A stretch of DNA of 64,000 nt from an uncultured Chloroflexia bacterium (GCA_963810095.1 CAWEMM010000007.1:416001-480000), one strand, 5' to 3'. Positions 14,095 through 41,719 are shown, numbered from the stretch's first letter. The notes: generated by a model from the letters alone, not told the origin. Made by a program: numbers and translations.

Positions 14095-14180
14095 GGCAAG
14101 ACGCTGACGCTGCATGCCTCATATCTACAGGATCTCTGCCTGTCAGGATCACGTAAATCAGTTCGGTCAGCGTCCCGTTC
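14095..14180. repeat. Junction palindrome, family C (degenerate copy)
   Basis: gacgctgac...ggatcacgtaaatcagttcggtcagcgtcccgtt; the right arm matches the other family C copies. Confidence 0.6.
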
Positions 14181-14181
14181 C

Positions 14182-14973
14182 CTACCGCATCTCCTGGCCG
14201 CCGGTGACGTTGAGGGCCTGGCCGGTCATGTAGCTCGACTGGTCAGAGGCGAGGAAGACTACGACGTTGCACACGTCGTCATACGTGCAGCCGCGCTTCA
14301 TGGGCACCTGGTCGACGTACTTCTGGCGCACCTGTTCGGGTGTGAGCCCCTGGTTGCGCGCGTACTGATCGAACAGCGACTGCTGCCACAGCGTGCCGTC
14401 CAGCAGGTTGCCCGGGCAGATCGCATTCACCCGGACGCCCTGCTCGGCCAGCTCCAGCGCCAGCGACTGGGTAAACCCGATGCCGCCGAACTTCGACGCC
14501 GCGTAGGCGGAGTTCTTGAAGCTGCCCTTCTTGCCCGACTTGGAGTTGATCTGGACGATCGCGCCGCTGCCTTGCGCCTTCATGATGCGGGCAGCCTCGC
14601 GGGCGGTCAGATAGTAACCGAACAGGTTGACCATCATCACGGCCTTCCACTTGCCCGCGTCCGACTCGGCCACCTCTTCCGCAATCAGGATGCCCGCGTT
14701 GGAGACGAGGACGTCCACCCGGCCGAATTCCCGGACGCACGCCGCGAACCCCTCGGCCACCGACGCCTCGTCTGTCACGTCCATCCGCACCGCGAGGCTG
14801 CGCTTGCCCGTCTCCGCGCACACCTGCTCGGCCGTTGCCTGCGCCTGCTCGATCTTGACGTCTGCCACAACGACGTCACACCCCTCGCGCGCCAGCCGCA
14901 GGCAGATCGCCTGGCCCAGCCCCTGCGCGCCCCCCGTCACCAGCGCCACTTTGCTCGTGAGTAGTTCTGCCAT
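14182..14973 (-). CDS. Sorbitol-6-phosphate 2-dehydrogenase-like SDR (SrlD/SorD-like polyol-phosphate dehydrogenase)
   Basis: 'VTGGAQGLG', 'QINSKSGKKGSFKNSAYAASKFGGIG', 'VPMKRGC.Y.DV', 'TGQALNVTGGQEM' match the SrlD subfamily; exact substrate uncertain. Confidence 0.85.
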   Translation of the reverse strand: MAELLTSKVALVTGGAQGLGQAICLRLAREGCDVVVADVKIEQAQATAEQVCAETGKRSLAVRMDVTDEASVAEGFAACVREFGRVDVLVSNAGILIAEEVAESDAGKWKAVMMVNLFGYYLTAREAARIMKAQGSGAIVQINSKSGKKGSFKNSAYAASKFGGIGFTQSLALELAEQGVRVNAICPGNLLDGTLWQQSLFDQYARNQGLTPEQVRQKYVDQVPMKRGCTYDDVCNVVVFLASDQSSYMTGQALNVTGGQEMR

Positions 14974-14989
14974 GAGAGAAACCCCTTCT

Positions 14990-15075
14990 GCCACGAATTA
15001 CACGAATTCTCACGAATTTTCAAAGGACCTGCAGAGCAGTTCGTGTCAATTCGTCGAATCCGTCGAATTCGTGGC
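14990..15075. repeat. Junction palindrome, family A (CACGAATT subrepeats)
   Basis: gccacgaattacacgaattctcacgaatt...ttcgtgtcaattcgtcgaatccgtcgaattcgtggc. Confidence 0.85.
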
Positions 15076-15082
15076 GACCTCG

Positions 15083-16869
15083 TCAATCCTTCAGCATGAC
15101 GCGCAGCAACTCGGCTTCGGCCTCGTTGGTCCACTCGCGGCCGTCTTTCAGCTTGGCGTACACGGTGGGCAGCACCGGCTCCAGGTCCATGATCGCGGTC
15201 AGCTGCAGCGGCTTGATGTGCGGGTAGATGACGACCTTGCCGGGATAGACCGTGTCCATCACCGACTTGATGCCGTCCTTCACCGCCTCGAGCGAGCCGA
15301 TCGCCGCCACCGAGCGGTTGGGCGAGAGGACCCCGGTTTCTGCATAGTGCAGCATGAGGCGCAGGTCGTCGATGCTCGACGCCGAGTGCCCGATCACCCG
15401 CACGCCCCGCAAGTACGCGTCCGAGAGGTCTAGGCTGACGAGCGTCCCGCGCCCCACCCCGGCAAATACGTTCATCACCCCGCCGGGCGCCAGCCAGCGT
15501 GCGGAGTCCGCGATCAAGGCGCCGACAGGTGCGAGCACCACGATGTCGTCAAACCCACCGGCGCCGTCCGTGCCGCCCTCAAAGCGTGCCATGCCCGGCC
15601 GCGTAGGCGTCCTTGTTCTGCGGGTTCAGGCAGATGAACTCGACGCCGTTCGCCTCGGCCTCGGCCCGGTAGGTGTCTGCCAGGTCTTGCAGGCGCAAGT
15701 CGCTCACGTCGGTCGAGATAACGACCTTGGGCCCCTCGGCCACCTGCAGCGCCCGCTGCACGTGCATGCGCCCCATCGGCCCGCCTGCACCGACAAACCA
15801 TGCCCGTCCCCCCGGCTTCAGGGTCGACCGCACCGGCGTCTGCAGGTAAGCCGCGGCTGCCGTCTGTGCCCATAGCGCCGACGAACACCCAGCGGTTGTA
15901 GTGCACCCGGCCCACGTCGACGTTCGCCGGCCGGTCGAGCGGCTCGTCGCCCAGCAGCGCGCAGACGCCGAAGTCCGCCAGGTGCGGGCTCACCGTCTCG
16001 ATGAGCTCCGCCGTCGGCCGGAGGAGAATGATGTCGTCGAAGTGATTGGACGCCGGCTTCCCGTCGTAGTTCGTGCGCAGTGCGGCGATTTCGGCGGGAA
16101 TCCGGGGCTGCGCGGGGTCGTCGACCATCACGACGGGCACGCCCAGCTCGGCCGCCCGGGCCTTGATCCAGGTGGCGAAGGCCGGCGGCACATTGCTCAG
16201 GCACACCACGGCCGGGTGCGACTCCGCGTCGAAGCCGCAGCCGATGGTGTACAAGCGGTCTTCGACCTCGGGGCCGCCTGCGATCCACAGGCTGCCGCCC
16301 GGCTTGATCCCGCCGCGATACTTGAGCTCATACGCGGCCGTCACGCACGCCCACGGCTCGGTCAGCGCGCTCTCGGCGTACCCCGTACCCGGCTGGACCG
16401 GAATCAGGTAGTTGCCGTCGTCGCCGTTCAGGATCGTGTCGGTCATCAGCCCGTACTCGGACAGGCCGCCTCGAATCATGTAGCCGTAGGACAGGTTGAT
16501 GCCGTTCTTGAAGATCTCGGCCTGAACGATGAAGCGGTCGCCCGGCCGGTACTGCTCTCGCAGCGCCTCGCCCACCTGCACGACGGTCACGGAAACCTCG
16601 TGGCCCAGCACGACCGGGTCCGTCTGCATGTCTTTGAAGATGCGCGGGTGCTGCTGGCCCAGGCGGATGACTTTCACGTCGGAGAAGCACAGCCCGCACG
16701 CATCATGCCGCACGAGCAATTGGTCCGCCCCAATGGCCGGCAGCGGCGAGTCCAGCGGCTTTCCGTCGACCCCCAGGTTGTCCAGCCCCGCCCCATAAAG
16801 CGGCCAGATGCGGTACGTGTCCTTCTTCGGGGCCTCGCCCCGGCGGTAGGTCTCGAGCTTATCGGTCAT
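15083..16869 (-). CDS. Zn-dependent MDR, L-sorbose-1-phosphate reductase (SorE)-like, with duplicated Rossmann domain; frameshifts near 15860 and 15595
   Basis: 'CGLCFSDVK', 'VLGHE', 'LTEPWACV', 'GAGGPMG', 'GFDDIVV', 'GKVVIYP', 'WTNEAE..LL'. Three ORF fragments join to about 595 aa; AGGAG RBS. Confidence 0.8.
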
Positions 16870-16891
16870 TGTGTTCTCCTGACAGACTTGA

Positions 16892-16965
16892 ACCACGAAG
16901 CCACGAAGACACAAAGTTTCACGAAGACGTCTTGGTGAACCTTCGTGTCTTCGGTTCTTTGTGGT
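16892..16965. repeat. Junction palindrome, family B (CACRAAG subrepeats)
   Basis: accacgaagccacgaagacacaaag...cttcgtgtcttcggttctttgtggt. Confidence 0.85.
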
Positions 16966-17793
16966 GAGCACTACCTGCCGGCAGCAGATCTGCCAGCTGT
17001 CGCAGCGCATACGTCGGGCGGATCGGCGACGTCACCAGGGCCGACTCGGGCGTCGCGCCGGTCAGCGCAAGGGCCGCGTCCATCCCCGCGTTGAGCCCCA
17101 TCAGCACATCCGTTTCCAGCCGGTCGCCCGTCATGATGCACTCGTTCGCGGGCAGGTCGAGCAGGTCGAGCACGGCCTCCACGGTATAGCGCGACGGCTT
17201 GCCCACCACCGCCTCGACCGTCGTCGCCGTGCATGCCTCGATGGCCGCAATCACCGCGGCCGCGTCGGGCTGGCCGCCGCCGGGGACAGGGCAGTACCGG
17301 TCGCCGTTGGTGGCGAAGAAGCGTGCGCCGGCCCGGATCGCGTCAAACGCGGTCTGTAACTTGGCATAATGGAAGGTCCGGTCGAAACTGGCGATGACGG
17401 CGTCCACGTGGGGCGAGTCGACCACGGCGAAGCCCGCCGCGTCGAGTTCCTCCTTCAGCGGTTCCTCGCCCACCACGAAGAGGCGCGCGCCGGGCATGCG
17501 GTGCTGCAGGAAGTTCGCCATGACCAGCGACGAGTGGATGATGTCGCGCTCGGTGACCGCGAGTCCGAGCCCGTTCAGCCGCGTCCACGTATGCCGCCCG
17601 GGTGTGCGTCGGGTTGTTCGAGAGGAAGGCGACGCGGCTGCCCATGGCCCGTAGCGCGGCGATCGTGTCCCCAACCGTCGGAAGCAGGCTGTCCCCGAGA
17701 TACGTGGTGCCGTCGAGGTCGAAGATGTAGCCCCGGTACAGCGCGGCGAGCGCGGGTGGGGATGCCGTGAATCAGTGCAGGTGTCGTTGGCAT
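16919..17793 (-). CDS. HAD-IIA sugar-phosphate phosphatase (NagD/AraL-like); frameshifts near 17755 and 17585
   Basis: 'YIFDLDGTTY', 'FLSNN', 'ATNGDR', 'VVGKPS', 'MTGDRLETDV' across the fragments. Confidence 0.85.
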
Positions 17794-17834
17794 AGACTCA
17801 GTCGCGACAGGGAATCCACGATGAAGGTACTTTC

Positions 17835-17863
17835 ATTATACTGCGATACGAAAGCAAACGCAA
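17835..17863 (-). promoter_or_regulatory. Sigma70-type promoter for the HAD-SorE-SrlD genes
   Basis: Minus strand TTGCGT-N17-TATAAT about 40 bp upstream of the HAD start. Confidence 0.6.
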
Positions 17864-17868
17864 GTTGA

Positions 17869-19124
17869 CTAAAGCCCCAGGTAATGCGCGAGCTTCTTGC
17901 CGGTAAAGCGCGGCCGGTAGTAGTGGCCCACGGCCAGGCCTTGCCGGTACTCATCTTCTGTCAGCCCCAACGCTTCGGGCGTCGTTGCGCCCCCCAGCTT
18001 CTCCAGCCATCCGCGCACCTCGCCCGCGGGTGGCACCTGGGCGAACACTCGCGCAGGTCGTCCCAGCGCGCCACAATGCGGTCGCGGAGCGCCGCGTACT
18101 GCTCGTCCGACATGCCGAGGAAGGGCTGTTGGATCGCGATCACCTGGTCGGCCAAGGGGCCGTAGCCTGCGCGGATGACCGCCTCTTCTCCTGCTTGCTG
18201 CCACCGCCGTACCTTCAGCCGCGCCTCGACCTCCTGCTTCGAGAGGGAACGCAGGGACTCGTACACGCCCGCGCTCGCCAGCACCGCCACGCCGACCTTT
18301 GCCCCGTGGAACACCGAGTGGCGGCCCTCGCGCAGCAGCTTCATCTCCCAGAAGTGCGACACGTGGTGCTCGTAGCCCGATGCCGGCCGCGTCTCGCCAA
18401 AGTCGAGCATGCAGAAGCCGGATTCGATCAGCCCGGCGAGGAGGGCTTCGACGCCGTCGCACTCGGCCGCGGCCAACTCGTCCAGCTTTGCCACGCTGTC
18501 GAGCACGGCTTGCCGGGCGCGGCGGGCAATCTCGGCGTCGAACGGCTCGTCCCACACGAGGTGCCCGATCTCCCAATCCGCCACCGAGGTCAGCTTGGCG
18601 ATCAGGTCGCCGAAGCCCGCCGCGGTCAGCGCCCGGGGCGCGGCGCAAAGCGTCGGCAGGTGTGCGATGACCGCCAGCGGTCCCTGGCAGACCACGGTGA
18701 CCTTGGCGCCGTCCAGGATCATCGGCGCGCCGATGGAGGTGTAGCCATCCACCGATGCCGCGGTGGGCAGCGAGATGAAGTCGGAGTTCGAGCGGTGGCT
18801 TGTGAAGCGGGCGACGTCGGTGACGGTGCCCGACCCGACGGCGACGAAGGTGCGCGGGGCCTTGTCCAGCGCCATCAGCACCTGGTAGACCGACTGCGCG
18901 TCCGCGCCGATGTCGTCACCCTGCAGGATGGCCGTGCGAACGTCCAGCCCGGCCGCCACGAGCGCTTCTTCGGCCGCCCGCCCCAGGGCCTCGTAGGTGT
19001 TCGGGTCGGCCACGAGCGCGAGCGAGCGCAGTCCGCGCTCGGCGCAGAAAGCGGTCAGGTTGGCTAGTGCGTCGCCCCCAATGTAGACGGGCAGATGGGC
19101 GGGAGCGGTCGTGTCTTGATGCAT
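17869..19124 (-). CDS. sn-glycerol-1-phosphate dehydrogenase family (AraM/EgsA-like); frameshift near 18040
   Basis: 'VAVGSGTVTDVAR', 'PTAASVDGYTS', 'AGFGDLIAK', 'RPASGYEHHVSHFWE', 'HGAKVG' metal/NAD motifs. Confidence 0.9.
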
Positions 19125-19166
19125 TTCGGGCGCCTCCTGAGCAGATAGTGGCAGTGTAGCACCTTA

Positions 19167-19180
19167 TGAAATCGTTGCCA
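19167..19180. promoter_or_regulatory. Putative LacI-family operator in the divergent promoter region
   Basis: TGAAATCGTTGCCA has 11/14 identity with TGGAATCGTTATCA upstream of the LacI gene and a central CG typical of LacI sites. A TATAAT lies at 19232-19237. Confidence 0.5.
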
Positions 19181-19314
19181 ATTGTCGGCCCGTTTTGTGT
19201 CCTGAACTACACAACGGTGCGTCCCTTGCACTATAATTCCATTGTCTTCCGATCCGGCGCCCACCGCTGCGTGCCCCTCTTCCGTGTTTGCGGCTCAGAT
19301 AAGGAGTAAGGCGA

Positions 19315-20273: not shown

Positions 20274-20280
20274 AAGGCCG

Positions 20281-20360
20281 AATGGCACGCAGATCCGCCT
20301 GATTCGACATGATTCTTTACGAGACAAGATCAGGAAGATCAGTTCGATCAGCGGGCCGTT
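20281..20360. repeat. Junction palindrome, family C
   Basis: aatggcacgcagat...tgat...tgat...aagatcaggaagatcagttcgatcagcgggccgtt. Confidence 0.8.
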
Positions 20361-20375
20361 CCGTTGGAGGACGCG

Positions 20376-21218
20376 ATGATTATCGACACGCACCAGCACT
20401 TGTGGGACCTGGACCGGGTGGCGTACCCCTGGCTGCTGCCCGAATTTGGGCCGATCGCGCGCACGTTCGTGCCTGCCGACCTCGAGCCGCAGTTGGCCGC
20501 CGCGGGCGTAACTCACACGGTCCTCGTCCAGTCGGCCAACAGCTACGCGGACACCGAGTACATGTTCGAGCAGGCGGCGCTGCACCCGTGGGTGACCGGG
20601 GTAGTCGGCTGGGCGCCGCTGCTCTATCCCGACGTCGCGGCCCGGGCCTTCGATCGTTTCGGCGCGAACCCCCTGTTTGCCGGCATCCGCCACCTCATCC
20701 ATAACGAGGCCGACCCGCACTGGCTGCTGCAGGACCGGGTGATCGAGAGCCTCAAGCTGCTGGCGGCCCGCGGGCTGACTTTCGACGTGGTCGCCACGCT
20801 GCACGAGCACCTGGCGTGCATTCCGATGCTGAGCGAACGCGTGCCGGGCCTGAAGATGGTCATCGACCACCTGGGCCAGCCGCCCATTTCGAGCGGGACG
20901 CTCGGCCAGTGGGGCGAGGATGTGCGGGCGGCTGCGCAGAACCCGAACGTATACGCCAAGATTTCCGGGCTGGGCACGGCCAGCGGCCTGCCCGACACCT
21001 GGAGCGCCGGCGACATTCGCCCCTACCTCGACTTCGTGCTCGAAGTTTTCGGGCCCGAGCGCTGCATGACCGGCGGCGACTGGCCCGTCTGCGTGCTGGC
21101 CGGCGGGTATGAAAAGGCGTGGCGCACCTACCGGGAGGCATACGCAGCTTACGGCGCGGATGTCCAGGACCAACTCTTGTACAAAACCGCCATCGCATTT
21201 TACGGACTGAAGAGATAA
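20376..21218 (+). CDS. Amidohydrolase_2 family, L-fuconolactonase-like sugar lactonase
   Basis: 'IIDTHQHLW', 'VLVQ', 'GIRH', 'VIDHLGQP', 'NVYAKISG', 'FGPERCM.GGDWPV'; GGAGG RBS. Confidence 0.88.
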   Translation: MIIDTHQHLWDLDRVAYPWLLPEFGPIARTFVPADLEPQLAAAGVTHTVLVQSANSYADTEYMFEQAALHPWVTGVVGWAPLLYPDVAARAFDRFGANPLFAGIRHLIHNEADPHWLLQDRVIESLKLLAARGLTFDVVATLHEHLACIPMLSERVPGLKMVIDHLGQPPISSGTLGQWGEDVRAAAQNPNVYAKISGLGTASGLPDTWSAGDIRPYLDFVLEVFGPERCMTGGDWPVCVLAGGYEKAWRTYREAYAAYGADVQDQLLYKTAIAFYGLKR

Positions 21219-21286
21219 CAGAAAGCACCGAAGAACAGAAGGCGCGAAAGGCTTTGCGAATCTTTGGTTCTTCGATTCTTCCTGTG
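21217..21286. repeat. Junction palindrome, family B-like (degenerate)
   Basis: acagaaagcaccgaagaacagaag...ctttggttcttcgattcttcctgt. Confidence 0.6.
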
Positions 21287-21312
21287 CCATCAGAGTCTCG
21301 GGAAGGTCTTAC

Positions 21313-22300
21313 ATGCGGGAATTGACGTACAGCCAGGCGCTCCGCGAGGCGCTCGCCGAGGAAATGGCGCGCGACCCCAACATCATCCTCCTGGGTGAGG
21401 ACATCGGCGTCTACGGCGGCGTGTTCAAGGTGACCGAAGGCCTGCTGGCGAAGTTCGGCCCGGAGCGCGTGCGCGAAACGCCCATCAGCGAGTCCGCGTT
21501 CGTCGGCGCGGGCGTGGGCCTCGCCATGACGGGCAAGCGCCCCGTCGCCGAGCTGATGTTCATGGACTTCATGTGGGTCACGTCCGACCAGATCATCAAC
21601 CAGGCGGCCAAGATGCGCTACATGACCGGCGGCCGCGTCAAGATGCCCCTGGTCATTCGCACGCAGCAGGGCGGCGGACGAGGCAACGGCGCGCAGCACT
21701 CGCAGAGCCTCGAGGCCGTCTTTGCGGCCACCCCCGGCTTGCAGGTCGTCTTGCCCAGCACCCCCGCCGACGCCAAGGGCCTGCTCAAGACGGCGCTGCG
21801 CCAGGATAACCCCGTCATCTTCATCGAGCACAAGCTGCTTTACAACACGAAGGGCCCCGTGCCGGAGGAGGACTACGCGATCCCGTTCGGCAGGGCGGAG
21901 GTCAGGGCCGAGGGCAGCGATGTCACGCTCGTGAGCTACTCTCGCACGGTGCTCCACGCGCTCGAAGCTGCCGAGGAAGCGCGGGCGCGAAGGCGTTTCG
22001 GTGGAGGTTATCGACCTGCGCACGATTGCGCCGCTCGACCTGGACGCGATCATCAGGTCGGTGAAGAAGACGGGCCGCCTCGTCGTCGCACACGAGGCGC
22101 ACCGGTCAGCCGGCTTCGGGGCCGAGATTGCCTCGCTCGTGCAGGAGCAGGCGTTCGACTACCTGGACGCACCCGTGCTGCGCGTCGGCGCGGCTCACGT
22201 CCCCATCCCGGCCTCCAAGCCGCTCGAGGACGTAGTGCTGCCGGGAAAAGCCCAGATCCTGGAAGCGATCCGGACGATTTGCTTGAGTCGGTTTAGCTGA
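21313..22300 (+). CDS. TPP-dependent dehydrogenase E1 beta subunit; frameshift near 21985
   Basis: 'LGEDIG.YGG.F.VT.GL..KFG.ERV.ETPISE', 'AQHSQS', 'EVIDLRTIAPLD', 'FDYLDAP'. Confidence 0.92.
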
Positions 22301-22369
22301 CCACAAAGTCACAGGATCTCAAAGGTCCACAAAGGTCTTGTTGATCCTGCGTCCTGTTGTCTTCGTGGT
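22300..22369. repeat. Junction palindrome, family B
   Basis: accacaaagtcacagga...ccacaaag...tcctgttgtcttcgtggt. Confidence 0.7.
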
Positions 22370-22380
22370 GAAGGGTGAGC

Positions 22381-23483
22381 ATGTCGGATGATCTGCTGGA
22401 CCTGGACTACAAGCCGCATCTGCCGCCGAAGACCGACTACGGCATCGGCATCATCGGCTGCGGCGGCATCGTCAACTACGCGGCCCTGCCCACATACCGG
22501 AAGCACGGGCTGAATATCGTCGGATGCTATGATGTTCGCCCCGAGGCAGCCGAGAAGACGGCGGCCGAGTTCGGCATCCCGAAAGTCTATCGTACGCTGG
22601 AGGAGGCGCTGGCCGACCCGGCCATGGAGATTGCGGAGATTTCGGTACCTCCCTGGGTTCAGCTCGACATCGTGTGCCAGGCCATCGACGCGGGCAAGCA
22701 CCTGCTGTGCCAGAAGCCCCTGTCGGACACCCTGTCGCATGCGGCCGAGATCGTCCGGGTGGCGCGCGACAAGGGCGTTAAGCTGGCGGTCAACCAGCAG
22801 CTGCGCTGGGGGCAGGGGCTGCGCGCCGCCGCACCCTCATCCGGAAAGGGTGGATCGGGCGGCCGACGGATGCGTCGATCCAGGTGAGCGTCAACACGCC
22901 CTGGGACATGTGGCCGTGGCTTGCCGCGCAGCCCCGGCTCGAGATCCTCTTCCACTCGATCCACTACCTCGACGCCATCCGCTCGCTGTTCGGCGACCCC
23001 GAGCACATCACCTCCCGCCACACCCGTTACCCCCTCCAGGGCGTGGTCAAGGGGGAGACCAAGACGATCACGATTCTGGATTACGCCGACGATATGCAGG
23101 CAATGGTGGCCGACAACCATTACAACCTGAGCGACGACTACTTCGCCGTCTTCCGGTTTATCGGCACCGAGGGGGTCATCACCGGCACGCTCGGCGCGAT
23201 GTACAACTATCCGGACGGACAGCCCGACACCCTCGCCTGGAGCAGTAAGCGCCACTATCCCGATAAGCGCTTCGAAGCGAAGCTCGAGGGCAAGTGGATT
23301 CCCGACTCGTTCATCGGGCCGACCGCCTCGTTGATGCAGGCGATCCAGGAGGACGGCGTGCCCGAGACGGACGGCTACGATAACCTGCAGACGCTGCGGG
23401 TAGTCGAGGCGTGTTATCTGTCGGCAGCCGAGAACCGCACGGTCTACATCGGGGAATGCGAAGCCATTCCATGCCGGGATTAG
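22381..23483 (+). CDS. Gfo/Idh/MocA family oxidoreductase (sugar dehydrogenase); frameshift near 22830
   Basis: 'IGIIGCGGI', 'GKHLLCQKP', 'VNQQLRW', 'HSIHYLD.IR.LFG'. Confidence 0.88.
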
Positions 23484-23484
23484 G

Positions 23485-23575
23485 AATGGGACGCAGATTG
23501 AAGTGATTGAACTGATCTGCATGGTCTCCGCAAGATCAGGTAAATCAGTCCGATCAGTTCAATCAGCGTTCTATT
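23485..23575. repeat. Junction palindrome, family C
   Basis: aatgggacgcagattgaagtgattgaactgatc...aagatcaggtaaatcagtccgatcagttcaatcagcgttctatt. Confidence 0.9.
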
Positions 23576-23588
23576 CAGGAGACACTTT

Positions 23589-24465: not shown

Positions 24466-24533
24466 GGTGCGTGCACCTTCGCGTTCCAACTTGCTTCGTG
24501 ATATGCTTCTCTGCCAACAGGAGGACGAATTCG

Positions 24534-24980: not shown

Positions 24981-24993
24981 AGGTAAGGACGAC

Positions 24994-26043
24994 ATGCTCA
25001 CCTACCAACCCGGCGAACTCCCCCTGATCCCGACACAGGTTATCGGCTCATCCGGCGTCCCCGGGTGGATGTGGGTTGTCCGCGACGCCGTCGCGGCCGG
25101 CAAGATGGGCCCGTACGATATCGACGAGGCGTTGAAGGACGCGGTGCGACTGGCGGTGCTCGAGATGGAGCAGGCCGGCGTCGACATCATCTCGGACGGC
25201 GAACTGCAGCGGGCCGACTTCACGTGGCACTTCCACGGCAAGGTGAAGGGCCTGCAGCCGGTCGAGTACGCCCGCAAGCTAGGGTACCCCGGCCCCGACC
25301 AGCTCGACGCGTTCCTGGTCGTCGAGCCGCTGACCGTGCCCGAGGGTTACGGCCACGCGGAGGAGTTCCGCTACGCCCGCACCCTCACGGATCGCCCGCT
25401 GATCTCCCCCATCCAGAGCCCGCTTACCCAGGCCTTCCGGATCAATCCGGGCAGCGTGTACAAGTCCAAGAGCGAGGTCGCCTGGGCGCTCGTCCCATTC
25501 ATCAACCAGGAGCTCAAGGACGTGGTGGCGGCGGGCTGCAAGCACATCCAGTTCGACGAACCGGCGTATTGGATCGCGGACGGCGGCCCCGAGGAGATGG
25601 TCGAGATCTTCAACGCGTGCGTCGAGGGCGTCGAAGCGACCATCGGGTTCCACCTGTGCTTCGGCAACTTCCGCGGCCGGCCCGCCACCTCGCATCGCTC
25701 CTTCGCAGCGTTTGCGCCCTGCTTCAAGGACCTTAACGTCGACGTGATCCACATCGAGTTCGCCAACCGCAACATGTACGAGGTCGAGCTGTGGGAGAAG
25801 TACGGCGGCGACAAGATCCTCTGTGCCGGCGTGATCGACGTCAAGGGTCGCAGCCTGGAGCCCGTCGAAGTCGTTGCGGACCGCATCCGGGCGTGCCTGC
25901 GCCACTGCGGAGCCGATAAGCTCTGGGTCGCGCCCGACTGCGGCTTCTCGCAGACACCCCGTGCCCTGGCGGTCGACAAGATGCGGGTGATGGTCGAAGC
26001 CGCGCGGTTGGTGAGAGAGGAAATAGGACGCGGATCGAACTGA
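24994..26043 (+). CDS. Cobalamin-independent methionine synthase II family (single-barrel MetE-like Zn thiol-activating enzyme)
   Basis: 'GVDIISDGE..R', 'IQFDEP', Zn ligands 'HLC.GN', 'IEFA', 'APDCG'. Confidence 0.88.
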   Translation: MLTYQPGELPLIPTQVIGSSGVPGWMWVVRDAVAAGKMGPYDIDEALKDAVRLAVLEMEQAGVDIISDGELQRADFTWHFHGKVKGLQPVEYARKLGYPGPDQLDAFLVVEPLTVPEGYGHAEEFRYARTLTDRPLISPIQSPLTQAFRINPGSVYKSKSEVAWALVPFINQELKDVVAAGCKHIQFDEPAYWIADGGPEEMVEIFNACVEGVEATIGFHLCFGNFRGRPATSHRSFAAFAPCFKDLNVDVIHIEFANRNMYEVELWEKYGGDKILCAGVIDVKGRSLEPVEVVADRIRACLRHCGADKLWVAPDCGFSQTPRALAVDKMRVMVEAARLVREEIGRGSN

Positions 26044-26114
26044 TCGGACTGATTTGCCAGATCTCTCGACAAGATCATGAAAATCAGTTCGATCAGTCTG
26101 ATCAGTGTCCCATT
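26022..26114. repeat. Junction palindrome, family C (overlaps the MetE-like stop codon)
   Basis: aataggacgcggatcgaactgatcggactgat...aagatcatgaaaatcagttcgatcagtctgatcagtgtcccatt. Confidence 0.9.
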
Positions 26115-26134
26115 CCTGTTCGAGGAGTACGGGC

Positions 26135-27762: not shown

Positions 27763-29172
27763 ATGCCCACGTCGTCGACAACCGTTTTCTGAAAGACCTG
27801 TTCGGGTCTCAGCCATTGCGCGAGGTTTTCTCTGACACTGCACAGCTGCAAGCCTGGCTCGACTTTGAGGCGGCCCTGGCTCGCTCGGAGGCCGCTGAGG
27901 GGCTCGTGCCGCCCGAGGCGGCTGCGGAGATCACGCGCAAGGCAAGAGCCGAGCTCATCGACGTCGAAGCGCTCCATGCCGGCGTCAACTTCACCGGGCA
28001 CCCGCTGATCTCGCTGGTGCGCCAGCTCGCTGGACTGTGTGAGGGCGAGGCGGGCCGCTACGTCCACTGGGGCGCGACGACGCAGGACGTGACCGACACC
28101 GGCCTCATGCTCCAGGCGAAAGCCGCGCACGGGATCATTTTGGGGGACCTGCGCGAGCTCGCCGGCGCGCTGAGCGCCCTCGCGCGGCGTGAGCGCGATA
28201 CGATCGAGGCAGGCCGGACGCACGGCCAGCATGCCACGCCCATCACCTTCGGCTTCAAGGTAGCGGTCTGGCTTGACGAAGTGCGGCGGCACATCGAGCG
28301 GCTGGAGCAGGCTGCGCCCCGGGTGCTGGTCGGGGAGTTCGCGGGCGCCTCTACCACGCTGGCATCCATCGGCGCGGAGCCGGAGCGCGCGCTGGCCGTG
28401 CAGCGCCGGCTGATGGCCGACCTGGGGTTAGGCGTGCCGCTGATCGGCTGGCATGCCGCCCGCGACCGCTTCGCCGAGCTGGGGCTGCTGTGGGCCATGG
28501 TGGCCGGCACGATGGGCAAGATCGCCCACGAGGTCATCCTATTGCAGAAGAGCGAGGTGATGGAGCTCGAGGAGCCGCACCATCACGGTAAGGTCGGGTT
28601 CGAGCACCATGCCGCACAAGCGCAACCCGATGGGATGCGAAGGCATCATGGCGCTCTCGCGTCTCGCGCGGTCGCTTGCGCCCGCACTGCTCGAGTCCAT
28701 GGCAACTGCGGAACACGAACGTGACTGGGCCGCGGTCCACACCGAGTGGTCCGCGTTGCCCGAGATCGCAATCGCGGCGGGCGCGGCGGTGAGCCAGACG
28801 CGCGACGTCATCGCCAAGCTGGTCGTCTATCCCGAGCGCATGCGGGAGAACGTCGACGCGCTGCACGGCCTGATCCTCTCCGAAGCCGTTATGCTGGCCC
28901 TGGGCGAGCACGTCGGGCGGCAGGTCAGCCATGAGATCGTGTACGAGGCGGCGATGACCGCCTTCGAAACCAGGCGGCCGCTGAAAGAGATCCTGCTGGC
29001 CGACCCGCGCGTCACGGCGCACCTGTCGGCCGGGCAGATCGACGCCCTGCTGCAGCCCGCGGCCTACACCGGCTTGGCCGGGGTGTTTGTCGATCGAGTC
29101 ACCGAAGTGCGCGGAAAGCGTAGAAGCCGGAGTTTCTTCGGAGAAACCTGGCTTCTGGCTCCTGAGGAGTAG
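27759..29172 (+). CDS. Adenylosuccinate lyase / 3-carboxy-cis,cis-muconate cycloisomerase family (fumarase superfamily); frameshift near 28600
   Basis: 'YVHWGATTQDVTDT', 'GRTHGQHATPITFG.K', signature 'GSSTMPHKRNP' across the shift, 'EHERD'. Confidence 0.9.
29122..29156. repeat. Short REP-like palindrome (AGAAACC-GG-TTCT type)
   Basis: agaagccggagtttct-tcgg-agaaacctggcttct; each half is roughly self-complementary. Confidence 0.65.
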
Positions 29173-29174
29173 GC

Positions 29175-29690
29175 ATGCTGGTACAGGTCTGGCATTTCAG
29201 CTTCACCATCTCAGACATCGAGCAGTCGGTGGCGTTCTACCGCGATGTGCTGGGCCTCGAGCTGGTGCACCGGCAGGAGCAGGCGAACGAGTACACCCGC
29301 AAGTTCGTCGGCTATCCGGACGCGCACCTGAAGGTCGCGCAGTTTCGCATCGCGGGCGCGCCGGTTAACCGTTCGGGGCACATGCTGGAGCTGATCGAAT
29401 ACGTCGCGCCGCGGGGAGAGAAGGTCGACACCCGCACGAAGAACACGGGGACCGCCCACCTCGCGTTCGAGGTGGACGACATTTTCGTGGAGTATCAGCG
29501 CATGAAGGGGCTCGGCGTGCGCTTCCGCAGCGAGCCCGTCGCCATCGAGGCAGGCATCAACAAGGGCGGCTACACCTGCTACTTCCTCGACCCCGACGAC
29601 ATCACCCTCGAGATCATCCAGCCACCCCACAGAAACGGGACGCAGATTTTACTGATCGAACTGATATGCCGATCCACAGGAGATCACTAA
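29175..29690 (+). CDS. VOC (glyoxalase/methylmalonyl-CoA epimerase-like) family protein
   Basis: 'HFSFTISDIEQSVAFYRDVLG', 'LELIEY', 'HLAFEVDDI', 'YFLDPDDITLEIIQ'. Confidence 0.9.
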   Translation: MLVQVWHFSFTISDIEQSVAFYRDVLGLELVHRQEQANEYTRKFVGYPDAHLKVAQFRIAGAPVNRSGHMLELIEYVAPRGEKVDTRTKNTGTAHLAFEVDDIFVEYQRMKGLGVRFRSEPVAIEAGINKGGYTCYFLDPDDITLEIIQPPHRNGTQILLIELICRSTGDH

Positions 29691-29723
29691 AATCCGCGGT
29701 CATTCTTCGATCTGCGTTCTATT
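29634..29723. repeat. Junction palindrome, family C (overlaps the VOC 3' end)
   Basis: aacgggacgcagattttactgatcgaactgat...gagatcactaaaatccgc...gatctgcgttctatt. Confidence 0.85.
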
Positions 29724-30649
29724 CAGCCAATTCCGTCGAGGATATCCCCCAGTTCGTCCTCCCACATGTCGTCGAGCGGCATGAAGGGGGTTTCCTCGAA
29801 GTCTTCGGTCATCCGGCCGAGTTGTTCCTTCACCTTGAGGCCGGGCATCTTGCGGTCCAGCCGGTCAAGCTGCGCTTGCATGTCCAGCGTGAGCTCTTCC
29901 CCGCGGCGCTCCAGGTCTGCCAGGTCGATCCAGACGCCGAACATGGTGTTGAGCCGGTGCATGATCTCGGCCCAGGCCCGGTAATCGTCTTCCACCCGCA
30001 CGCCGTCGACTTCCTGGTGTTGCGTGGAAAAGTCATACGCGGGCACGAAGCCGTACAATGACAGGGCTTCGATTCCCTCGTGCTCGGCCCGATCCAGCAG
30101 GTACGTCCCGATCGTCACGCCGCCTTCGTAGCTCGAGAACTTGAGGGCGTACTTTTCCAGCTTCTCGCGCAGAAAGGGCAGGCTGTAGACGGCGTGAATG
30201 TCGCGGGCCTTGTCGTACGGCACCGGGCCGTAGACCCGCCCGAGCATGACCACCCGCTTGACACCCAGCCGCTTGACTGCGGCGAAGAACGCCTCCGCGT
30301 ACCGGTCCGCATCCAGGTGCGGCTCGTCGCCCGTAAAGATGATCAGCCCCTTGCCTTGCAGCTCGGCGTAGTACAGGTCATTTGCATGGCGGGTCAGCGA
30401 CTCGCGATACCCGTCGTTGAGCTTCACTTCCGGCCGCAGGAAGTGATGTGTGCCCGGCACCTGGAACAGGTAAGAGCCGCCGACGTTCAGCTCGCCGATC
30501 TTTCGTGCGTCGGTGGCTTCGATAATGTGCTTCGGCAGTCCGGAGGAAATGCAACCCGCGTCGGCCCACTGCTGCCAACCGGCGATCATGAAGAGCTCGC
30601 TGACGTCGGGCTGTTCCCAGAGGCGGACGAGATCAGAATTGGATGCCAT
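29723..30649 (-). CDS. PAC2 family (proteasome assembly chaperone-like) protein
   Basis: 'MIAGWQQWADAG', 'RPEV...DG', 'GDEPH', 'SSYEG', 'IDLADLE'. Confidence 0.8.
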   Translation of the reverse strand: MASNSDLVRLWEQPDVSELFMIAGWQQWADAGCISSGLPKHIIEATDARKIGELNVGGSYLFQVPGTHHFLRPEVKLNDGYRESLTRHANDLYYAELQGKGLIIFTGDEPHLDADRYAEAFFAAVKRLGVKRVVMLGRVYGPVPYDKARDIHAVYSLPFLREKLEKYALKFSSYEGGVTIGTYLLDRAEHEGIEALSLYGFVPAYDFSTQHQEVDGVRVEDDYRAWAEIMHRLNTMFGVWIDLADLERRGEELTLDMQAQLDRLDRKMPGLKVKEQLGRMTEDFEETPFMPLDDMWEDELGDILDGIG

Positions 30650-30693
30650 GTCGATGATGTCCCCTTTCCAGAAGTGTACGTTCTGGCACTGGA

Positions 30694-30702: not shown

Positions 30703-30719
30703 TCAACAGGCGCAGGGGG

Positions 30720-30811
30720 AATAGGACGCAGATTTAACTGATCGAATGGAATCTCATGATCCTGTCCGGAAATCATGAAGGGCCGTTCGATCAGTCCGAT
30801 CAGTGTCCCAT
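30720..30811. repeat. Junction palindrome, family C
   Basis: aataggacgcagatttaactgatcgaatgg...catgat...atcatg...ccgttcgatcagtccgatcagtgtcccat. Confidence 0.9.
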
Positions 30812-30816
30812 CCCGC

Positions 30817-32129: not shown

Positions 32130-32160
32130 ATTCGTGTCGATATTGCACCTCGCTTGGGAG

Positions 32161-32254
32161 AATGGCACGCTGATTCAACTGATCGAACGGATCTTCATGA
32201 TTCACAAAGGAGATCACGTCAATCAGTTAAATCAGTCCGAATCCGCGTCCTATT
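32161..32254. repeat. Junction palindrome, family C
   Basis: aatggcacgctgattcaactgatcgaacggat...gagatcacgtcaatcagttaaatcagtccgaatccgcgtcctatt. Confidence 0.9.
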
Positions 32255-32259
32255 TCAGT

Positions 32260-33759: not shown

Positions 33760-33774
33760 AAGCACCTCCTGAGC

Positions 33775-33834
33775 AACACAAAGACACAAAGACACGACGA
33801 ATGAAGGGTTTCGGTGTCTTGGTGTCTTTGTGTT
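33775..33834. repeat. Junction palindrome, family B
   Basis: aacacaaagacacaaagacac...gtgtcttggtgtctttgtgtt; near-perfect 21-nt arms. Confidence 0.9.
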
Positions 33835-33843
33835 AAGAGCGAG

Positions 33844-35565: not shown

Positions 35566-35592
35566 GACACATCCTCCTGATGCTTAAGGCGG

Positions 35593-35684
35593 AATGGCAC
35601 ACAGATTGAACTGATCGAACCGATCCCCTTGTCTTCGATAAGGATCATGTGAACCGGTTCAATCAGTCCGATCTGCGTCCTATT
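35593..35684. repeat. Junction palindrome, family C
   Basis: aatggcacacagattgaactgatcgaaccgat...aggatcatgtgaaccggttcaatcagtccgatctgcgtcctatt. Confidence 0.9.
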
Positions 35685-36606
35685 AACCTTTCGTTGCTCC
35701 GGAAGCCAGGCCGGCCACCAGTTGGCGCTGGACGAGCGCGACGAAGATGACCGACGGAATGAGCATCATAATCGACATGGCGGTCATCCCGCGCCAGTCC
35801 GACACGAACGAGCCCGTGAACTCGTAGAGCGCCGGCGGGAAAGTACGCGAGGCCGGCGTACGCGTGATCTGCGTGGCGATGGCGAACTCGTTCCAGCAGG
35901 TCAGGAACGCAAAGATGCCGCTCGCAGCCACCCCCGGCATGGCCAGGGGCAAATCCACCCGGATCAGCGCGCCCCACCGCGAGCAACCGTCGATCACCGC
36001 CGCTTCCGCCAGTTCCTCGGGGATGGCGCGGAAGAAGCCGTCCATGAGCCATGCCGTGAAGGGGATGTTGAGCGCCGTGTACGCGATGATCATGCCCGGG
36101 ATCTTGTTGATCAGGCCCACCCGGGCGAAGAGGATGAACAGGGGCAAGCTCAGCGCGACCCCCGGCACGGCGCGCGCGAGCATCATGCTTAGAAAGATGC
36201 CATTCTTCGCCCTGAACGACCACCGGGAGAACACGTATCCTGCCATGGTGCCAAGCACGAGCGAGAAGAATGTGCTGGAGAGGGCGATGACCGTGGAGTT
36301 GCGAGCGTATTCGGCAACGGGGATTTCTGAGCCCATTCCGAACGCGCCCTCGGGCGTCGGCATGCCCAACAGGATTTTGTACGAATCCAGATCAAGCGCA
36401 CGCGGGATCCAGACGGGCGGTCGCGCGTTGATCTCCACGTTCGGCCGGATCGACGTCATCAGGAGCCACAAGACCGGGACGAAGAACAGGAAGATGATGA
36501 AATAAAGCAGGAGGTCGCGCGCTGTGTCGCTCCAGTAGCGCCGGCGACCCGATTTGTCGAACTTGCCTGAAGTCTTAGCAGGGCGGCTGGTCGTGACGGC
36601 GCTCAT
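35683..36606 (-). CDS. Carbohydrate ABC transporter permease (MalG-like)
   Basis: EAA motif 'FFRAIPEELAEAAVIDGCS', 'WNEF'. Confidence 0.95.
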   Translation of the reverse strand: MSAVTTSRPAKTSGKFDKSGRRRYWSDTARDLLLYFIIFLFFVPVLWLLMTSIRPNVEINARPPVWIPRALDLDSYKILLGMPTPEGAFGMGSEIPVAEYARNSTVIALSSTFFSLVLGTMAGYVFSRWSFRAKNGIFLSMMLARAVPGVALSLPLFILFARVGLINKIPGMIIAYTALNIPFTAWLMDGFFRAIPEELAEAAVIDGCSRWGALIRVDLPLAMPGVAASGIFAFLTCWNEFAIATQITRTPASRTFPPALYEFTGSFVSDWRGMTAMSIMMLIPSVIFVALVQRQLVAGLASGATKG

Positions 36607-39980: not shown

Positions 39981-39992
39981 AAAGGACTCTCT

Positions 39993-40080
39993 GCCACGAA
40001 TTACACGAATTGGGCGAATTTCCCGAAGCTAGACCAAGAAGCAATTCGCTGCAATTCGTTGAATTCGCGCAATTCGTGGC
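39993..40080. repeat. Junction palindrome, family A
   Basis: gccacgaattacacgaattgggcgaatt...aattcgctgcaattcgttgaattcgcgcaattcgtggc; the first 19 nt are identical to the 14990 copy. Confidence 0.88.
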
Positions 40081-40087
40081 GGCCTCG

Positions 40088-41272
40088 TCAATGGATGTCC
40101 GGGAGGTCCCACTGGCCGAGCTGCAACGGGTAGCAGCCGTACTGGCGGACCAGGTTGACGACGAACTCATAACGCTCGGCGGAGACGTTTGACGGCACGC
40201 TGTGGTCCGACTGCACGATGTAGCCGCCACCCTTCGCGGCGTTGAGCTTGGTGAGCACCATGTCCTTCAGCTCGTCCATCGTCCCATAGGCCCACGTGAG
40301 CACATCCAGGTTGCCGCAAAAGCCGATCCGGTGCCCGTAGCGCCGGCGCAGGTCCACGACGTCCAGGTTGGCCTTGGCTTCCAGCGGATTGTACGCGTCG
40401 ACCTTCGTCTCGATGTAATCTTCGAAGATACGGTTCACGTTGCCGCAGCCGTGGTAGATCACGGGGATGCCGGCATCGTGGCAGACCTTGGTCATCTCGG
40501 TCACGACGGGCTTGAAGTAGCGCCGCCAGTACTTCGGCGAGAAGAAGACGTCCTTGCGATACGCCACATCGCCCCAGATGACCATGCCGTCGATCAGGGG
40601 CCGCCCGTCGGCGGCCATAGCCGCCTTGACCTGTGCCTTGGTCAGCTCCACGCACCATTCGCCCAGCCGGTCGATGAAGCGGCCGATCTCGTCGGGGTAG
40701 AGCCCGATCCACAGCATGACGTTCTCGGAGCCGATGATCCGCCACAGCATTTCGTGCGCCTCGCACGCACTGCCGTACACGGGGATGTCCGGGTGCTTCT
40801 CCTTCACCGTTTCGATCCAGGCCGGCGAGTTGAACGTGAAGCCGTCGCCCACGCCCCCCAGCTGGTTATCGCCGGCGGCAAACCAGCGCCGGTCGTCCCA
40901 CGGGTCGTCGAACTCGAACGCGGCCATTTTCTCGGGCGTGTCCGTTTCGAAGTGCAAGAAGGCGGGCATCGGGTCTTCGAACTTCTTCCGCAAGACCGCC
41001 TCGAAGCCGGTGCGAACCGTGATCTCGCTGTCGCTCTGTGAGATCACCTCGAACGGCTTGATGTGGGGGTCCATGTTCGGCACGGTCACGAGCCAGTCGA
41101 GATCATAGTGCTTGTAGATGTCGGCGTCTGCGGGCAGGCCCATTTCCGTGCGCCAGCGTTCCAGGAAGCTGCCCCAGTAGAAGTCGCTGATCGGGACGCG
41201 GTCGGCTTCTTCGTGGCGCAGTGTCTTGTTAATCCGGTCGAGCTTGAGCAAGCAGTTGGGGGTGCGGTCCAT
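40088..41272 (-). CDS. Uroporphyrinogen decarboxylase (URO-D)/MtaA-CmuA-like family protein
   Basis: 'HEEADRVP', 'WGDVA', 'FSP..WRRYFKP', 'YHGCG', 'NPLE', 'GGYIVQSDH'. Confidence 0.85.
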   Translation of the reverse strand: MDRTPNCLLKLDRINKTLRHEEADRVPISDFYWGSFLERWRTEMGLPADADIYKHYDLDWLVTVPNMDPHIKPFEVISQSDSEITVRTGFEAVLRKKFEDPMPAFLHFETDTPEKMAAFEFDDPWDDRRWFAAGDNQLGGVGDGFTFNSPAWIETVKEKHPDIPVYGSACEAHEMLWRIIGSENVMLWIGLYPDEIGRFIDRLGEWCVELTKAQVKAAMAADGRPLIDGMVIWGDVAYRKDVFFSPKYWRRYFKPVVTEMTKVCHDAGIPVIYHGCGNVNRIFEDYIETKVDAYNPLEAKANLDVVDLRRRYGHRIGFCGNLDVLTWAYGTMDELKDMVLTKLNAAKGGGYIVQSDHSVPSNVSAERYEFVVNLVRQYGCYPLQLGQWDLPDIH

Positions 41273-41281
41273 ACGAGCTCC

Positions 41282-41605
41282 TCAGTCCTGGTGGAAGACT
41301 TCGTCGAGATTCGCCCACCATTCGCCCTCGGCGCGGGTGGGCAGGGGACGCTGGAGCGGCATCTGGATGTCCCACCATTCCTGCGTCTTCGGGTGCGCGG
41401 CCATCTTCGCCATGTCCGCGGCGTAATCCTCGCCCACGTACTCGAAGTAGGCAAAGAGCAGGCCGTCTTTGTGATAGATCGAGTAGTTGCGGATGTTGCA
41501 CTGCGTGATCATGTCGGCCACCTCGGGCCAGACGGCCGAGTGCCAGCGCTTGTACTCCTCCAGGTTCTCTGGGGGCATGCCGATGATCTGAGCGACGCGC
41601 ATCAT
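41282..41605 (-). CDS. L-rhamnose/L-fucose mutarotase family (RhaM-like)
   Basis: 'EEYKRWHSAVWPEV......NIRNYSIY....LFAYFEY', 'TQEWW', 'EVFH'. Confidence 0.92.
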   Translation of the reverse strand: MMRVAQIIGMPPENLEEYKRWHSAVWPEVADMITQCNIRNYSIYHKDGLLFAYFEYVGEDYAADMAKMAAHPKTQEWWDIQMPLQRPLPTRAEGEWWANLDEVFHQD

Positions 41606-41650
41606 GTATGACCTCCCTTGGTTGCCGTTCTAGCGATCAGTTACGGACCT

Positions 41651-41719
41651 AACACGAAGTCACAAAGTCACAAAGACGGCTACTCTCTGCCCGCAATTGT
41701 GCCTTGGTATCTTTGTGTT
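41651..41719. repeat. Junction palindrome, family B
   Basis: aacacgaagtcacaaagtcacaaag...ttgtgccttggtatctttgtgtt. Confidence 0.85.

Follow-up and report, generated by a model that had tools for sequence, protein, structure and literature searches.

Palindromic elements at the gene junctions of a Chloroflexia catabolic cluster: probable non-autonomous relatives of a small element carrying a GxxExxY nuclease gene

The systems closest to the elements reported here are the repetitive extragenic palindromes (REPs) and the miniature inverted-repeat transposable elements (MITEs) of bacteria. REPs are stem-loops of 20–40 nt with an unpaired GTAG tag which, as REPs or REPINs, form so-called REPtrons with the gene of a REP-associated tyrosine transposase (RAYT), a Y1 HUH enzyme. 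MITEs, for example Correia, ERIC and Nezha, are non-coding intergenic sequences of 50–150 nt with terminal inverted repeats that are co-transcribed with their neighbours and have a longer, gene-carrying form with the same ends. A further kind, the CGTC-tagged REPs, occurs in Chlorobi, Bacteroidetes, Spirochaetes and others; the sections of the study that deal with them give 8–9 bp stems, 4–5 nt loops and an unpaired terminal tag in which CGTC is often changed to TGTC, describe them as having no dedicated transposase, and state that many REPs are transcribed (Di Nocera 2013, PMC3733652). Here we describe 17 palindromic elements at gene junctions in a 64,000-nt stretch (the window, always at its full length) of the genome of an uncultured Chloroflexia bacterium (GCA_963810095.1, CAWEMM010000007.1:416001-480000). 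In other genomes the arms of one widespread family frame a gene for a small GxxExxY nuclease, and 15 of the 17 elements are probably non-autonomous, REP/MITE-like derivatives of such a nuclease element, mobilised in trans. The elements thus point to what may be an undescribed kind of mobile element, rather than to a regulatory device of the operons in which they lie.

The window has a GC content of about 66% overall (local range 0.61–0.70), and the elements punctuate a catabolic cluster for sugars and organic acids, which consists of two long operons between 14 and 43.8 kb. The initial annotation had reported 17 inverted repeats of 35–95 bp at gene boundaries in both operons, most of them AT-richer than the surrounding DNA and filling the space from a stop codon to the next ribosome-binding site. 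An inverted repeat is indeed present at every one of these places, starting within a few bases of the position reported; the GC content of 0.44–0.56 makes the elements AT-rich islands, and their distance to the stop or start codon next to them is −59 to +42 nt. Profile searches sort them into family A (n = 8), family B (n = 2), family C (n = 5) and two unique stem-loops (Table 1). The members of the three families are hairpins of 64–102 nt, about 90–100 nt in family A, and have the same anatomy: a short conserved end (G-S-A-C-R-C or CCAC) is followed by three or four tandem units of 8–10 nt, a loop, and the mirror image. The ends of family A in the window read GGACGC...GCGTCC, or GGACAC...GTGTCC in some copies; the arms of family B consist of CACGAATT units and those of family C of CACGAAG/CACAAAG units. 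Unit periodicity reached p ≤ 0.05 at 12 of the 17 sites (A 5/8, B 2/2, C 5/5, unique 0/2), compared with none of 10 control junctions.

When folded as DNA, ten of the 17 elements were better than all of 200 shuffles, with z scores of −3.95 to −7.75 for those at 14990, 16890, 23482, 26019, 29120, 30716, 33773, 37570 and 39991; the hairpin at 32157 is near the limit (z −2.90, with one shuffle in 200 as good). The seven weak hairpins (14095, 20278, 21215, 22298, 29632, 35589 and 41648; z −0.98 to −2.9) are taken as decayed family members, since the profile searches place all of them in families.

Within the window the three families are confined to the cluster, as first annotated. Their profiles have no match in the window outside 14–42 kb, and a covariance model of family A, run with filters off, finds none elsewhere in the window. 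In a gapless palindrome scan of the 64 kb every AT-rich (GC < 0.5) junction palindrome falls at 14.9–40.1 kb, while the junction palindromes outside the cluster (7199, 50084 and 59701) and the strong hairpins there (at 7.2, 46.7, 50.1 and 59.7 kb) are rich in GC and resemble terminators. On a hand-curated gene map, an A, B or C element stands at 15 of 27 junctions in the cluster and at 0 of 21 outside it (Fisher p = 1.9e-5). The earlier statement that no transposase or nuclease gene is visible also stands: no such domain was found among the 60 window open reading frames (ORFs).

A match to an already described repeat class, which would have removed the novelty of the elements, was not found. 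At E ≤ 1 the sole match in Rfam is MIR3444, at 26.1 bits against a gathering score of 80, and neither the 19–43.9 kb part of the window nor a copy of family A has a real match in plasmids. Like REPs and REPINs, the elements are short extragenic palindromes in many copies, placed past the 3′ ends of genes at co-directional or convergent junctions, and the same repeats enclose a small gene for a dedicated enzyme, with gene-less copies far commoner than gene-bearing ones. They differ in that the enzyme is a PD-(D/E)XK nuclease (PF13366/TIGR04256), multi-copy and spread across phyla, and not a Y1 HUH protein, and in that the palindromes are of 64–102 nt, made of tandem 8–10-mers, with base-paired ends (GGAAT..GGAC / CCAC) and no GTAG. 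The ends of family A do recall the CGTC-tagged REPs, and the copies ending in GGACAC...GTGTCC mirror the CGTC to TGTC change; however, in family A the motif is base-paired inside an arm of about 45 nt, and there is no short stem-loop unit. Family A therefore falls outside the CGTC-tagged REPs as defined in the relevant sections of PMC3733652, although a distant relation is conceivable.

The likeness to MITEs extends to the noncoding, intergenic, co-transcribed short form, its terminal inverted repeats and the longer form with the same ends. In contrast to MITEs, the gene of the long form encodes a PD-(D/E)XK nuclease and no known transposase, and the whole element is a near-perfect palindrome, with co-varying arms and a sequence conserved across phyla; a target-site duplication is not evident either, as far as the uncertain ends allow this to be judged. 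PD-(D/E)XK proteins with a part in DNA mobility are known, such as TnsA of Tn7 and the Rpn/YhgA ‘transposase_31’ proteins. With these and with homing endonuclease genes the present system has in common a small nuclease gene of this fold that behaves as a selfish unit; unlike homing endonuclease genes, it has no intron or intein context, and the framing repeat arrays also exist as many gene-less copies. Integron attC sites have RYYYAAC / GTTRRRY cores in one orientation with an integrase nearby. This identity was rejected for the elements, in view of their ends, their presence in operons of both strands and the lack of an integrase among the window ORFs. No description of a link between such palindromic arms and GxxExxY nuclease genes was found in the open full-text literature; a passage on GxxExxY in a study of reverse transcriptases has no bearing on mobility.

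The distribution of family A beyond the window was followed with a degenerate 28-letter pattern of its arm, scanned over a collection of genome contigs; the pattern has 7 matches in the window and none in 100 shuffles. It matched at least 94 stretches from at least 49 assemblies, the assemblies being counted from the listed matches, which are referred to as L001–L094. The window-derived profile confirms 88 of the 94 listed loci, and three Bacteroidota loci carry left-arm variants only. The listed loci come from Bacteroidota, Chloroflexota, Ignavibacteriota, Chlorobi, Planctomycetota, KSB1, Calditrichota, Cloacimonadota, Pseudomonadota and Ca. Vecturithrix. The element sequence is kept over a range of local host GC of 0.27–0.68 (element GC 0.25–0.56), and family A is multi-copy, with at least 17 loci from one metagenome-assembled genome (MAG) and at least 10 from another. 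Subfamilies follow the host; the window profile gives a median of 56 bits for copies from Chloroflexota and 41.5 for those from Bacteroidota.

Placement in these genomes is strictly intergenic and close to the 3′ ends of genes. None of 89 places lies inside a long ORF; where neighbours are present within 300 nt on both sides (n = 51), 34 pairs are co-directional, 14 convergent and 3 divergent, and the copies are separated from gene 3′ ends by a median of 10 nt, compared with 67 nt for 5′ ends. The neighbours are genes of every kind, among them the trp operon, murein ligases, enolase and ATP synthase, so that family A is not targeted to carbohydrate operons. Local clusters of copies exist elsewhere: in L059 the copies 1068-1161 and 1996-2090 occupy successive trp-operon junctions (trpD/trpC/trpF), and an Anaerolineae contig (JAXGYZ010000006.1, 96–105 kb, L025–L028) has five copies within 10 kb. 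Such clustering is therefore not peculiar to the window.

The arms of family A are physically associated with GxxExxY genes. Four of the 141 ORFs flanking the listed loci belong to PDDEXK_3 (PF13366), and all four match TIGR04256 (‘GxxExxY protein’); by a six-frame search, the gene is present at 6 of the 94 loci, with arms abutting it in five. In L009 and L043 left arm, ORF and right arm follow one another within about 570 nt, L038 has a full hairpin on each side of the nuclease gene, and in L001 and L081 one arm lies directly upstream. The gene between the arms encodes a PD-(D/E)XK protein of 125–150 aa, and the gene-bearing unit has the same ends in different genomic contexts in different phyla. 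The unit of Ca. Vecturithrix (L038:2093-4027) lies immediately upstream of a defence-like TIR-NACHT gene. No other enzyme recurs among the 141 flanking ORFs: Y1_Tnp and HNH occur once each, and a DDE transposase not at all. The Y1_Tnp ORF (L031) is 98 nt from a family A copy and is not framed by arms; at L032:2123-2203 a hairpin of AGATTGA/AGACTGA units is found beside an HNH gene.

A second set of loci was selected by protein, blind to repeats, with a tblastn search of the nuclease against plasmids, which gave eight records from six phyla. Beside every one of the eight nuclease genes, no more than about 100 nt away, there are tandem 8–10-mer units or short inverted arms. Inverted arms are present at the genes of Treponema, Bernardetia, Bacteroides and Sphingomonas, the right arm of the last lying inside the 3′ end of the ORF. 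In Gemmatirosa a full hairpin, matched by the family A profile at E 0.027, stands right after the stop codon of the nuclease and recurs on two replicons, at 7 and 11 places. The periodicity test of the arm positions gave p ≤ 0.05 for five of the eight genes and 0.052 for one more, again with 0/10 for the control junctions. These plasmid genes sit among housekeeping genes, for example between fabD and fabG.

The unit sequence differs by lineage (CTGATTGAA, CGCGGAT.., CACGGATT, CACAGAGA and CGCGAAGG), and the nuclease differs with it. Nucleases with CTGAT-type arms, from five phyla, are 49–63% identical; the CACAGAG-armed pair are mutual nearest neighbours (56% identity), while nucleases of Bacteroidota with differing arm types are 31–44% identical (the Gemmatirosa nuclease, L096, was left out of this matrix). 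Judged by these comparisons, nuclease sequence and arm type diverge together, a pattern to be expected of an enzyme that recognises the arms. The protein also looks active: the E, D and ExK residues do not vary among 27 nuclease sequences, and an AlphaFold2 model (pLDDT 91) predicts a minimal PD-(D/E)XK fold, the nearest solved structures being Cas4, lambda exonuclease, MGME1 and the Hjc resolvase, all distant at TM 0.4–0.6. Searches of the nuclease gave no match in phages (tblastn) and no relative among PDB sequences. The GxxExxY family is very large, with at least 8000 clusters at E ≤ 1e-10, often on very short contigs; in the part of a survey that covers it, PF13366 is given as of unknown function with ‘multiple transfers’ (Steczkiewicz 2012).

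Families B and C are linked to this system by similarity. L036 bridges A and B, with A-type ends and ACGAATT units as in family B, and scores 53 bits on the family A model, which in turn scores both family B sites of the window at E 0.002–0.03. The arms of Bernardetia and Bacteroides, with CACAGAGA units and CCAC ends, are about one base per unit away from family C, which has the same CCAC end and also resembles the Sphingomonas arm; three of the five distinct sub-threshold matches of the family C profile on plasmid loci fall on the arms of nuclease genes. Family C, and more weakly B, may thus belong to the same system as A.

Under the interpretation favoured here, a full element would consist of a GxxExxY nuclease gene between arms, as in the other genomes. 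Nuclease produced by a full copy elsewhere in the genome would bind the tandem units of both arms and make its cuts at the ends of the element or close to them, perhaps with an extruded cruciform as substrate; copies without a gene would thereby be moved or copied to sites just downstream of stop codons, where they would be tolerated. The pile-up in the cluster would stem from local spread, tolerance in an accessory region, or both, and would not serve the cluster itself. Incidentally, each copy would add a stem of about 30–45 bp to the polycistronic mRNA, which may alter its processing or stability. A broader proposal is that GxxExxY proteins mobilise an undescribed superfamily of very small bacterial elements of about 0.55 kb, which would end in arrays of tandem 8–10 nt binding units and have gene-less hairpin derivatives at operon junctions in many phyla. 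Each nuclease lineage would have its own unit, so that A, B and C would be three lineages in one genome; the proposal is put forward tentatively, as somewhat less likely than not.

A number of observations weigh against the derivation of the elements from a mobile nuclease unit. A six-frame search of the 64 kb found no GxxExxY gene in the window, and only 5–6 of the 94 listed, repeat-selected loci hold one. We know of no transposase type that resembles a PD-(D/E)XK protein of 125 aa. In the plasmid records from Fusobacteria, Persicobacter and Prevotella (L095, L099 and L100) same-orientation arrays stand on both sides of the gene, and such arrays, at three of the eight genes, are a poor fit to a simple inverted-repeat transposon. 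At the ends of 68 full-length places and of the window copies no consistent direct repeat indicates a target-site duplication, the ends themselves being uncertain where palindromy runs into the flanks. Copies occupy the same site in two Anaerolineae species (L053/L093 and L014/L064), so not all are recent. That the arms covary, with 89.5% of cells paired compared with 81.5% in shuffles (reached by 0 of 500) and 21–39% when the arms are slid, speaks in favour of the derivation, but these figures are inflated because the alignment holds both strands of each palindrome, fitted to the model. Three pattern matches in Acidobacteriota (L033, L054 and L086) have no hairpin and are probably chance or coding matches. 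All 94 listed loci are metagenome-derived, with no isolate genome among the matches listed, which may be an effect of the order of the listing, and mis-binning could inflate the list of phyla; cultured strains do carry the broader superfamily, on plasmids. Families B and C have no match in plasmids nor, by motifs and profiles, in the 94 listed loci, and as family C reaches no significant score (E > 1 on the family A model, E ≥ 0.22 for its own profile on plasmid arms), its membership depends on architecture and unit similarity.

The main alternative is that the hairpins spread by another route, through a host process or a different enzyme, and that the GxxExxY gene is cargo or a homing-type parasite that invades hairpin loops. 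This would suit the loops of family A, whose inserts may be as short as 5 nt, reach about 200 nt or consist of the ORF of 450 nt, the other palindromes nested in the arms, the three protein-selected genes with same-orientation arrays and the scarcity of the gene among the listed loci (6/94). It accounts less well for a nuclease that tracks arm type across phyla and for units with the same ends in different contexts, and no alternative enzyme recurs near the arms; we regard it as unlikely. Another possibility is that the arms are arrays of sites, iteron-like or bound by a nucleoid or regulatory protein of the host, with GxxExxY as a domesticated binder and no mobile element involved. Tandem units of 8–10 nt are typical of multimeric binding, and two species share some copies at orthologous sites. 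The invariant catalytic residues of the nuclease, the great differences in copy content between genomes, the decayed copies and the patchy cross-phylum distribution of the nuclease, on many short contigs, leave this explanation with only a slight chance. About as improbable are classical REP/RAYT elements (REPINs) that depend on a Y1 HUH transposase, or MITEs derived from a DDE insertion sequence of the ordinary type: the placement, extragenic and after 3′ ends, is REP-like and one Y1_Tnp ORF lies close to a copy, but the GTAG tag is missing, the units are of 64–102 nt and not 20–40 nt, the single Y1_Tnp ORF among 141 is unframed, DDE transposases are absent from that set and there is no Rfam or plasmid match.

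The initial annotation had offered two readings, and the one in which the stem-loops form a dedicated post-transcriptional system, setting RNase cleavage, segmental mRNA stability and hence enzyme stoichiometry, is now very unlikely. The elements do fill stop-to-start gaps in two long operons and each would form a stem in the mRNA; REP and BIME (bacterial interspersed mosaic element) sequences stabilise upstream mRNA, and stabilising hairpins are classical after the binding-protein genes of ABC transporters, the position of the stem-loop at 37570. Against this, the same family occurs in many phyla at unrelated junctions, whatever the function of the adjacent genes. The elements also stand out as AT-rich from a genome of 66% GC, they are missing from other operon junctions of the window, and several copies have decayed as hairpins. 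Copies of family A are near-symmetric and both strands score alike; with modest power, an excess of G.U over A.C on the sense strand is absent (35 vs 25, p 0.25; 33 vs 43, p 0.30). Terminator-like sites in 14000–33900 number 10, with 10.1 expected, and none is a whole element, one being in the loop of 21215. Intrinsic terminators, with a GC-rich stem and a T run, were rejected as an identity for the elements, the stems of which are AT-rich and lie inside operons. Taken together, the likeness of the strands, the lack of a G.U excess and the lack of terminator character give no pointer to selection on an RNA stem, although side effects on mRNA stability or processing are possible. For the two ordinary unique stem-loops, at 29120 and 37570, a local RNA role is the simpler reading. 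The other reading, of REP/MITE-like elements mobilised in trans, is supported and gains in detail, since a widespread, multi-copy intergenic palindrome frames a GxxExxY gene in other genomes; the added idea that they target these operons is not, in view of the junctions of all gene kinds that they occupy elsewhere. Similarly, of the two partner genes proposed at annotation, a GxxExxY gene flanked by the same repeats is present in other genomes, while for RAYT (Y1) the flanking ORFs of the listed loci offer a single, unframed Y1_Tnp ORF.

Table 1. Positions, hairpin strength, model matches and gene context of the 17 palindromic elements (CM, covariance model).
Element	Position	Hairpin z	Profile or model match	Periodicity p	Gene context
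Family A, decayed, left arm degenerate	14094..14182	-1.98	nhmmer E 2.8e-14; CM 18.7 bits, E 0.007		between convergent MatE (+) and SDR (-)
Family B (CACGAATT units)	14990..15078	-5.69 (0/200 shuffles)	B profile; family A model 16.7 bits, E 0.026	0.004	SDR start / ADH stop, - operon
Family C (CACGAAG/CACAAAG units)	16890..16966	-4.68	C profile E 2e-17	0.001	ADH/HAD junction, - strand
Family A, partly decayed	20278..20366	-2.23	nhmmer E 4.6e-17; CM 42.5 bits		E1-alpha stop / amidohydrolase start, + operon
Family C-like (CCGAAGA/CAGAAGG/CGCGAAAGG units)	21215..21290	-2.04	C profile E 2.4e-14	0.013	amidohydrolase / E1-beta
Family C-like, weak hairpin	22298..22372	-0.98	C profile E 6.4e-12	<0.001	E1-beta / GFO/IDH/MocA
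Family A, intact	23482..23579	-6.19	nhmmer E 8e-27; CM 87.2 bits		overlaps GFO TAG stop; end 9 nt before SDR start
Family A, best preserved	26019..26118	-6.60	nhmmer E 4.7e-28; CM 94.6 bits		Meth_synt_2 ORF (24994-26043) ends 25 nt inside
Unique 15-bp stem-loop, no sub-repeats	29120..29160	-4.80	no profile/CM match	0.95	lyase / glyoxalase junction
Family A, right arm decayed	29632..29726	-1.32	nhmmer E 1.3e-21; CM 51.2 bits		between convergent glyoxalase (+) and PAC2 (-); glyoxalase ORF 59 nt into element
Family A	30716..30816	-4.29	nhmmer E 1.6e-25; CM 81.8 bits		PAC2 start / PHP-like gene stop, - operon
Family A	32157..32258	-2.90	nhmmer E 3.8e-26; CM 85.6 bits		PHP-like gene start / FGGY kinase stop
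Family C (CACAAAGA units), near-perfect hairpin	33773..33836	-7.75	C profile E 1.6e-12	<0.001	FGGY start / FucI-like stop
Family A	35589..35687	-1.54	nhmmer E 2.5e-24; CM 78.5 bits		FucI-like start / ABC permease stop (stop inside element end)
Unique 13-bp stem-loop	37570..37630	-5.41	no A/B/C profile match; CM 8.3 bits, E 6.4	0.27	after solute-binding-protein gene
Family B	39991..40082	-3.95	B profile; family A model 20.8 bits, E 0.0017	<0.001	creatininase start / URO-D stop
Family C-like, right arm decayed	41648..41720	-2.46	C profile E 1.6e-16	<0.001	RhaM start / URO-D stop

Two ORFs of the cluster, 24994-26043 and 29175-29690, run into family A copies by 25 nt and 59 nt, so that element sequence makes up their last 8 and about 19 codons; apparently the original stop codon of each was displaced on insertion. 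The 1.34 kb between the family A copies at 30716 and 32157 was considered as element cargo and rejected, being a frameshifted PHP-like gene of the host. Few gaps of the cluster are free of elements; in one of these, which separates the divergent Fe-ADH (−) and E1-alpha (+) genes, two promoter-like sites face each other (19153-19237), of four that a scan of 14000–33900 detected.

Several copies of family A in other genomes are composite. In Anaerolineae MAGs a second, smaller palindrome (GCCAACC....GGTTGGC) is nested within the arms (L005:3076-3201, L057:1922-2035, L064:2097-2165 and L070:1903-2034), which indicates that repeats have been inserted into repeats. In one Bacteroidota MAG the palindromy of L007:133-243 and L083:296-404 continues for at least 20 nt past the conserved ends into copy-specific flanks, as would be expected had the element landed in the loop of a pre-existing hairpin; other copies in this MAG show only the longer ends of that lineage. 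L076, L042 and L092 are composite arrays in which A-type left arms are joined to CAGAGG/CGCAAAG or CACAAATTAT units, and in the Saprospiraceae loci L069, L085, L071 and L050 a separate short repeat (TTGGCTTCGCCAAAA and its complement) adjoins family A copies.

By Pfam, the cluster encodes SDR, ADH, E1 dehydrogenase, amidohydrolase, GFO/IDH/MocA, lyase and FGGY kinase proteins, together with fucose-isomerase-like, ABC sugar transporter, URO-D-like, RhaM and LacI proteins. Relatives of one window protein, at about 80% identity, come from Anaerolineae, Thermoflexales, Chloroflexi and some Armatimonadota. Many genes (E1_dh, GFO/IDH/MocA, Lyase_1+ADSL_C, RCC1, InhA and PHP-like) are divided between two frames that overlap or abut, a single Pfam family continuing across the break (2354-4409, 7279-10081, 15083-17010, 19315-20273, 22375-23483, 27759-29172, 30800-32168 and 57391-59694). 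As these split frames are spread over the entire window, inside and outside the cluster, they suggest indel errors of the assembly rather than pseudogenes. Upstream of the cluster, a phage-tail-like gene set at 3-7199 (Baseplate_J, a weak Mu Gp48 and DUF6519) may be a tail-like particle or a prophage remnant, and 7279-10081 (−) is a gene for a large RCC1-repeat protein, whose DNA repeat of about 150 nt, in at least 12 copies, dominates the direct-repeat output.

If the proposed origin of the elements is correct, a very large protein family of unknown function would gain a testable role, and PD-(D/E)XK nucleases would be a third class of enzyme, beside DDE and HUH, that drives miniature palindromic repeats in bacteria. 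The AT-rich operon hairpins of Chloroflexota, Bacteroidota, Ignavibacteriota and other phyla, which break metagenome assemblies, would be accounted for, and under the broader proposal an enzyme would be found for some of the palindromic repeat classes that have been said to ‘lack a transposase’. Cultured organisms open to experiment include Gemmatirosa, Bacteroides, Bernardetia and Treponema saccharophilum. For annotation the elements call for caution, since such junction hairpins would not be operon-specific regulators and can change the ends of ORFs, as in the two cases here.

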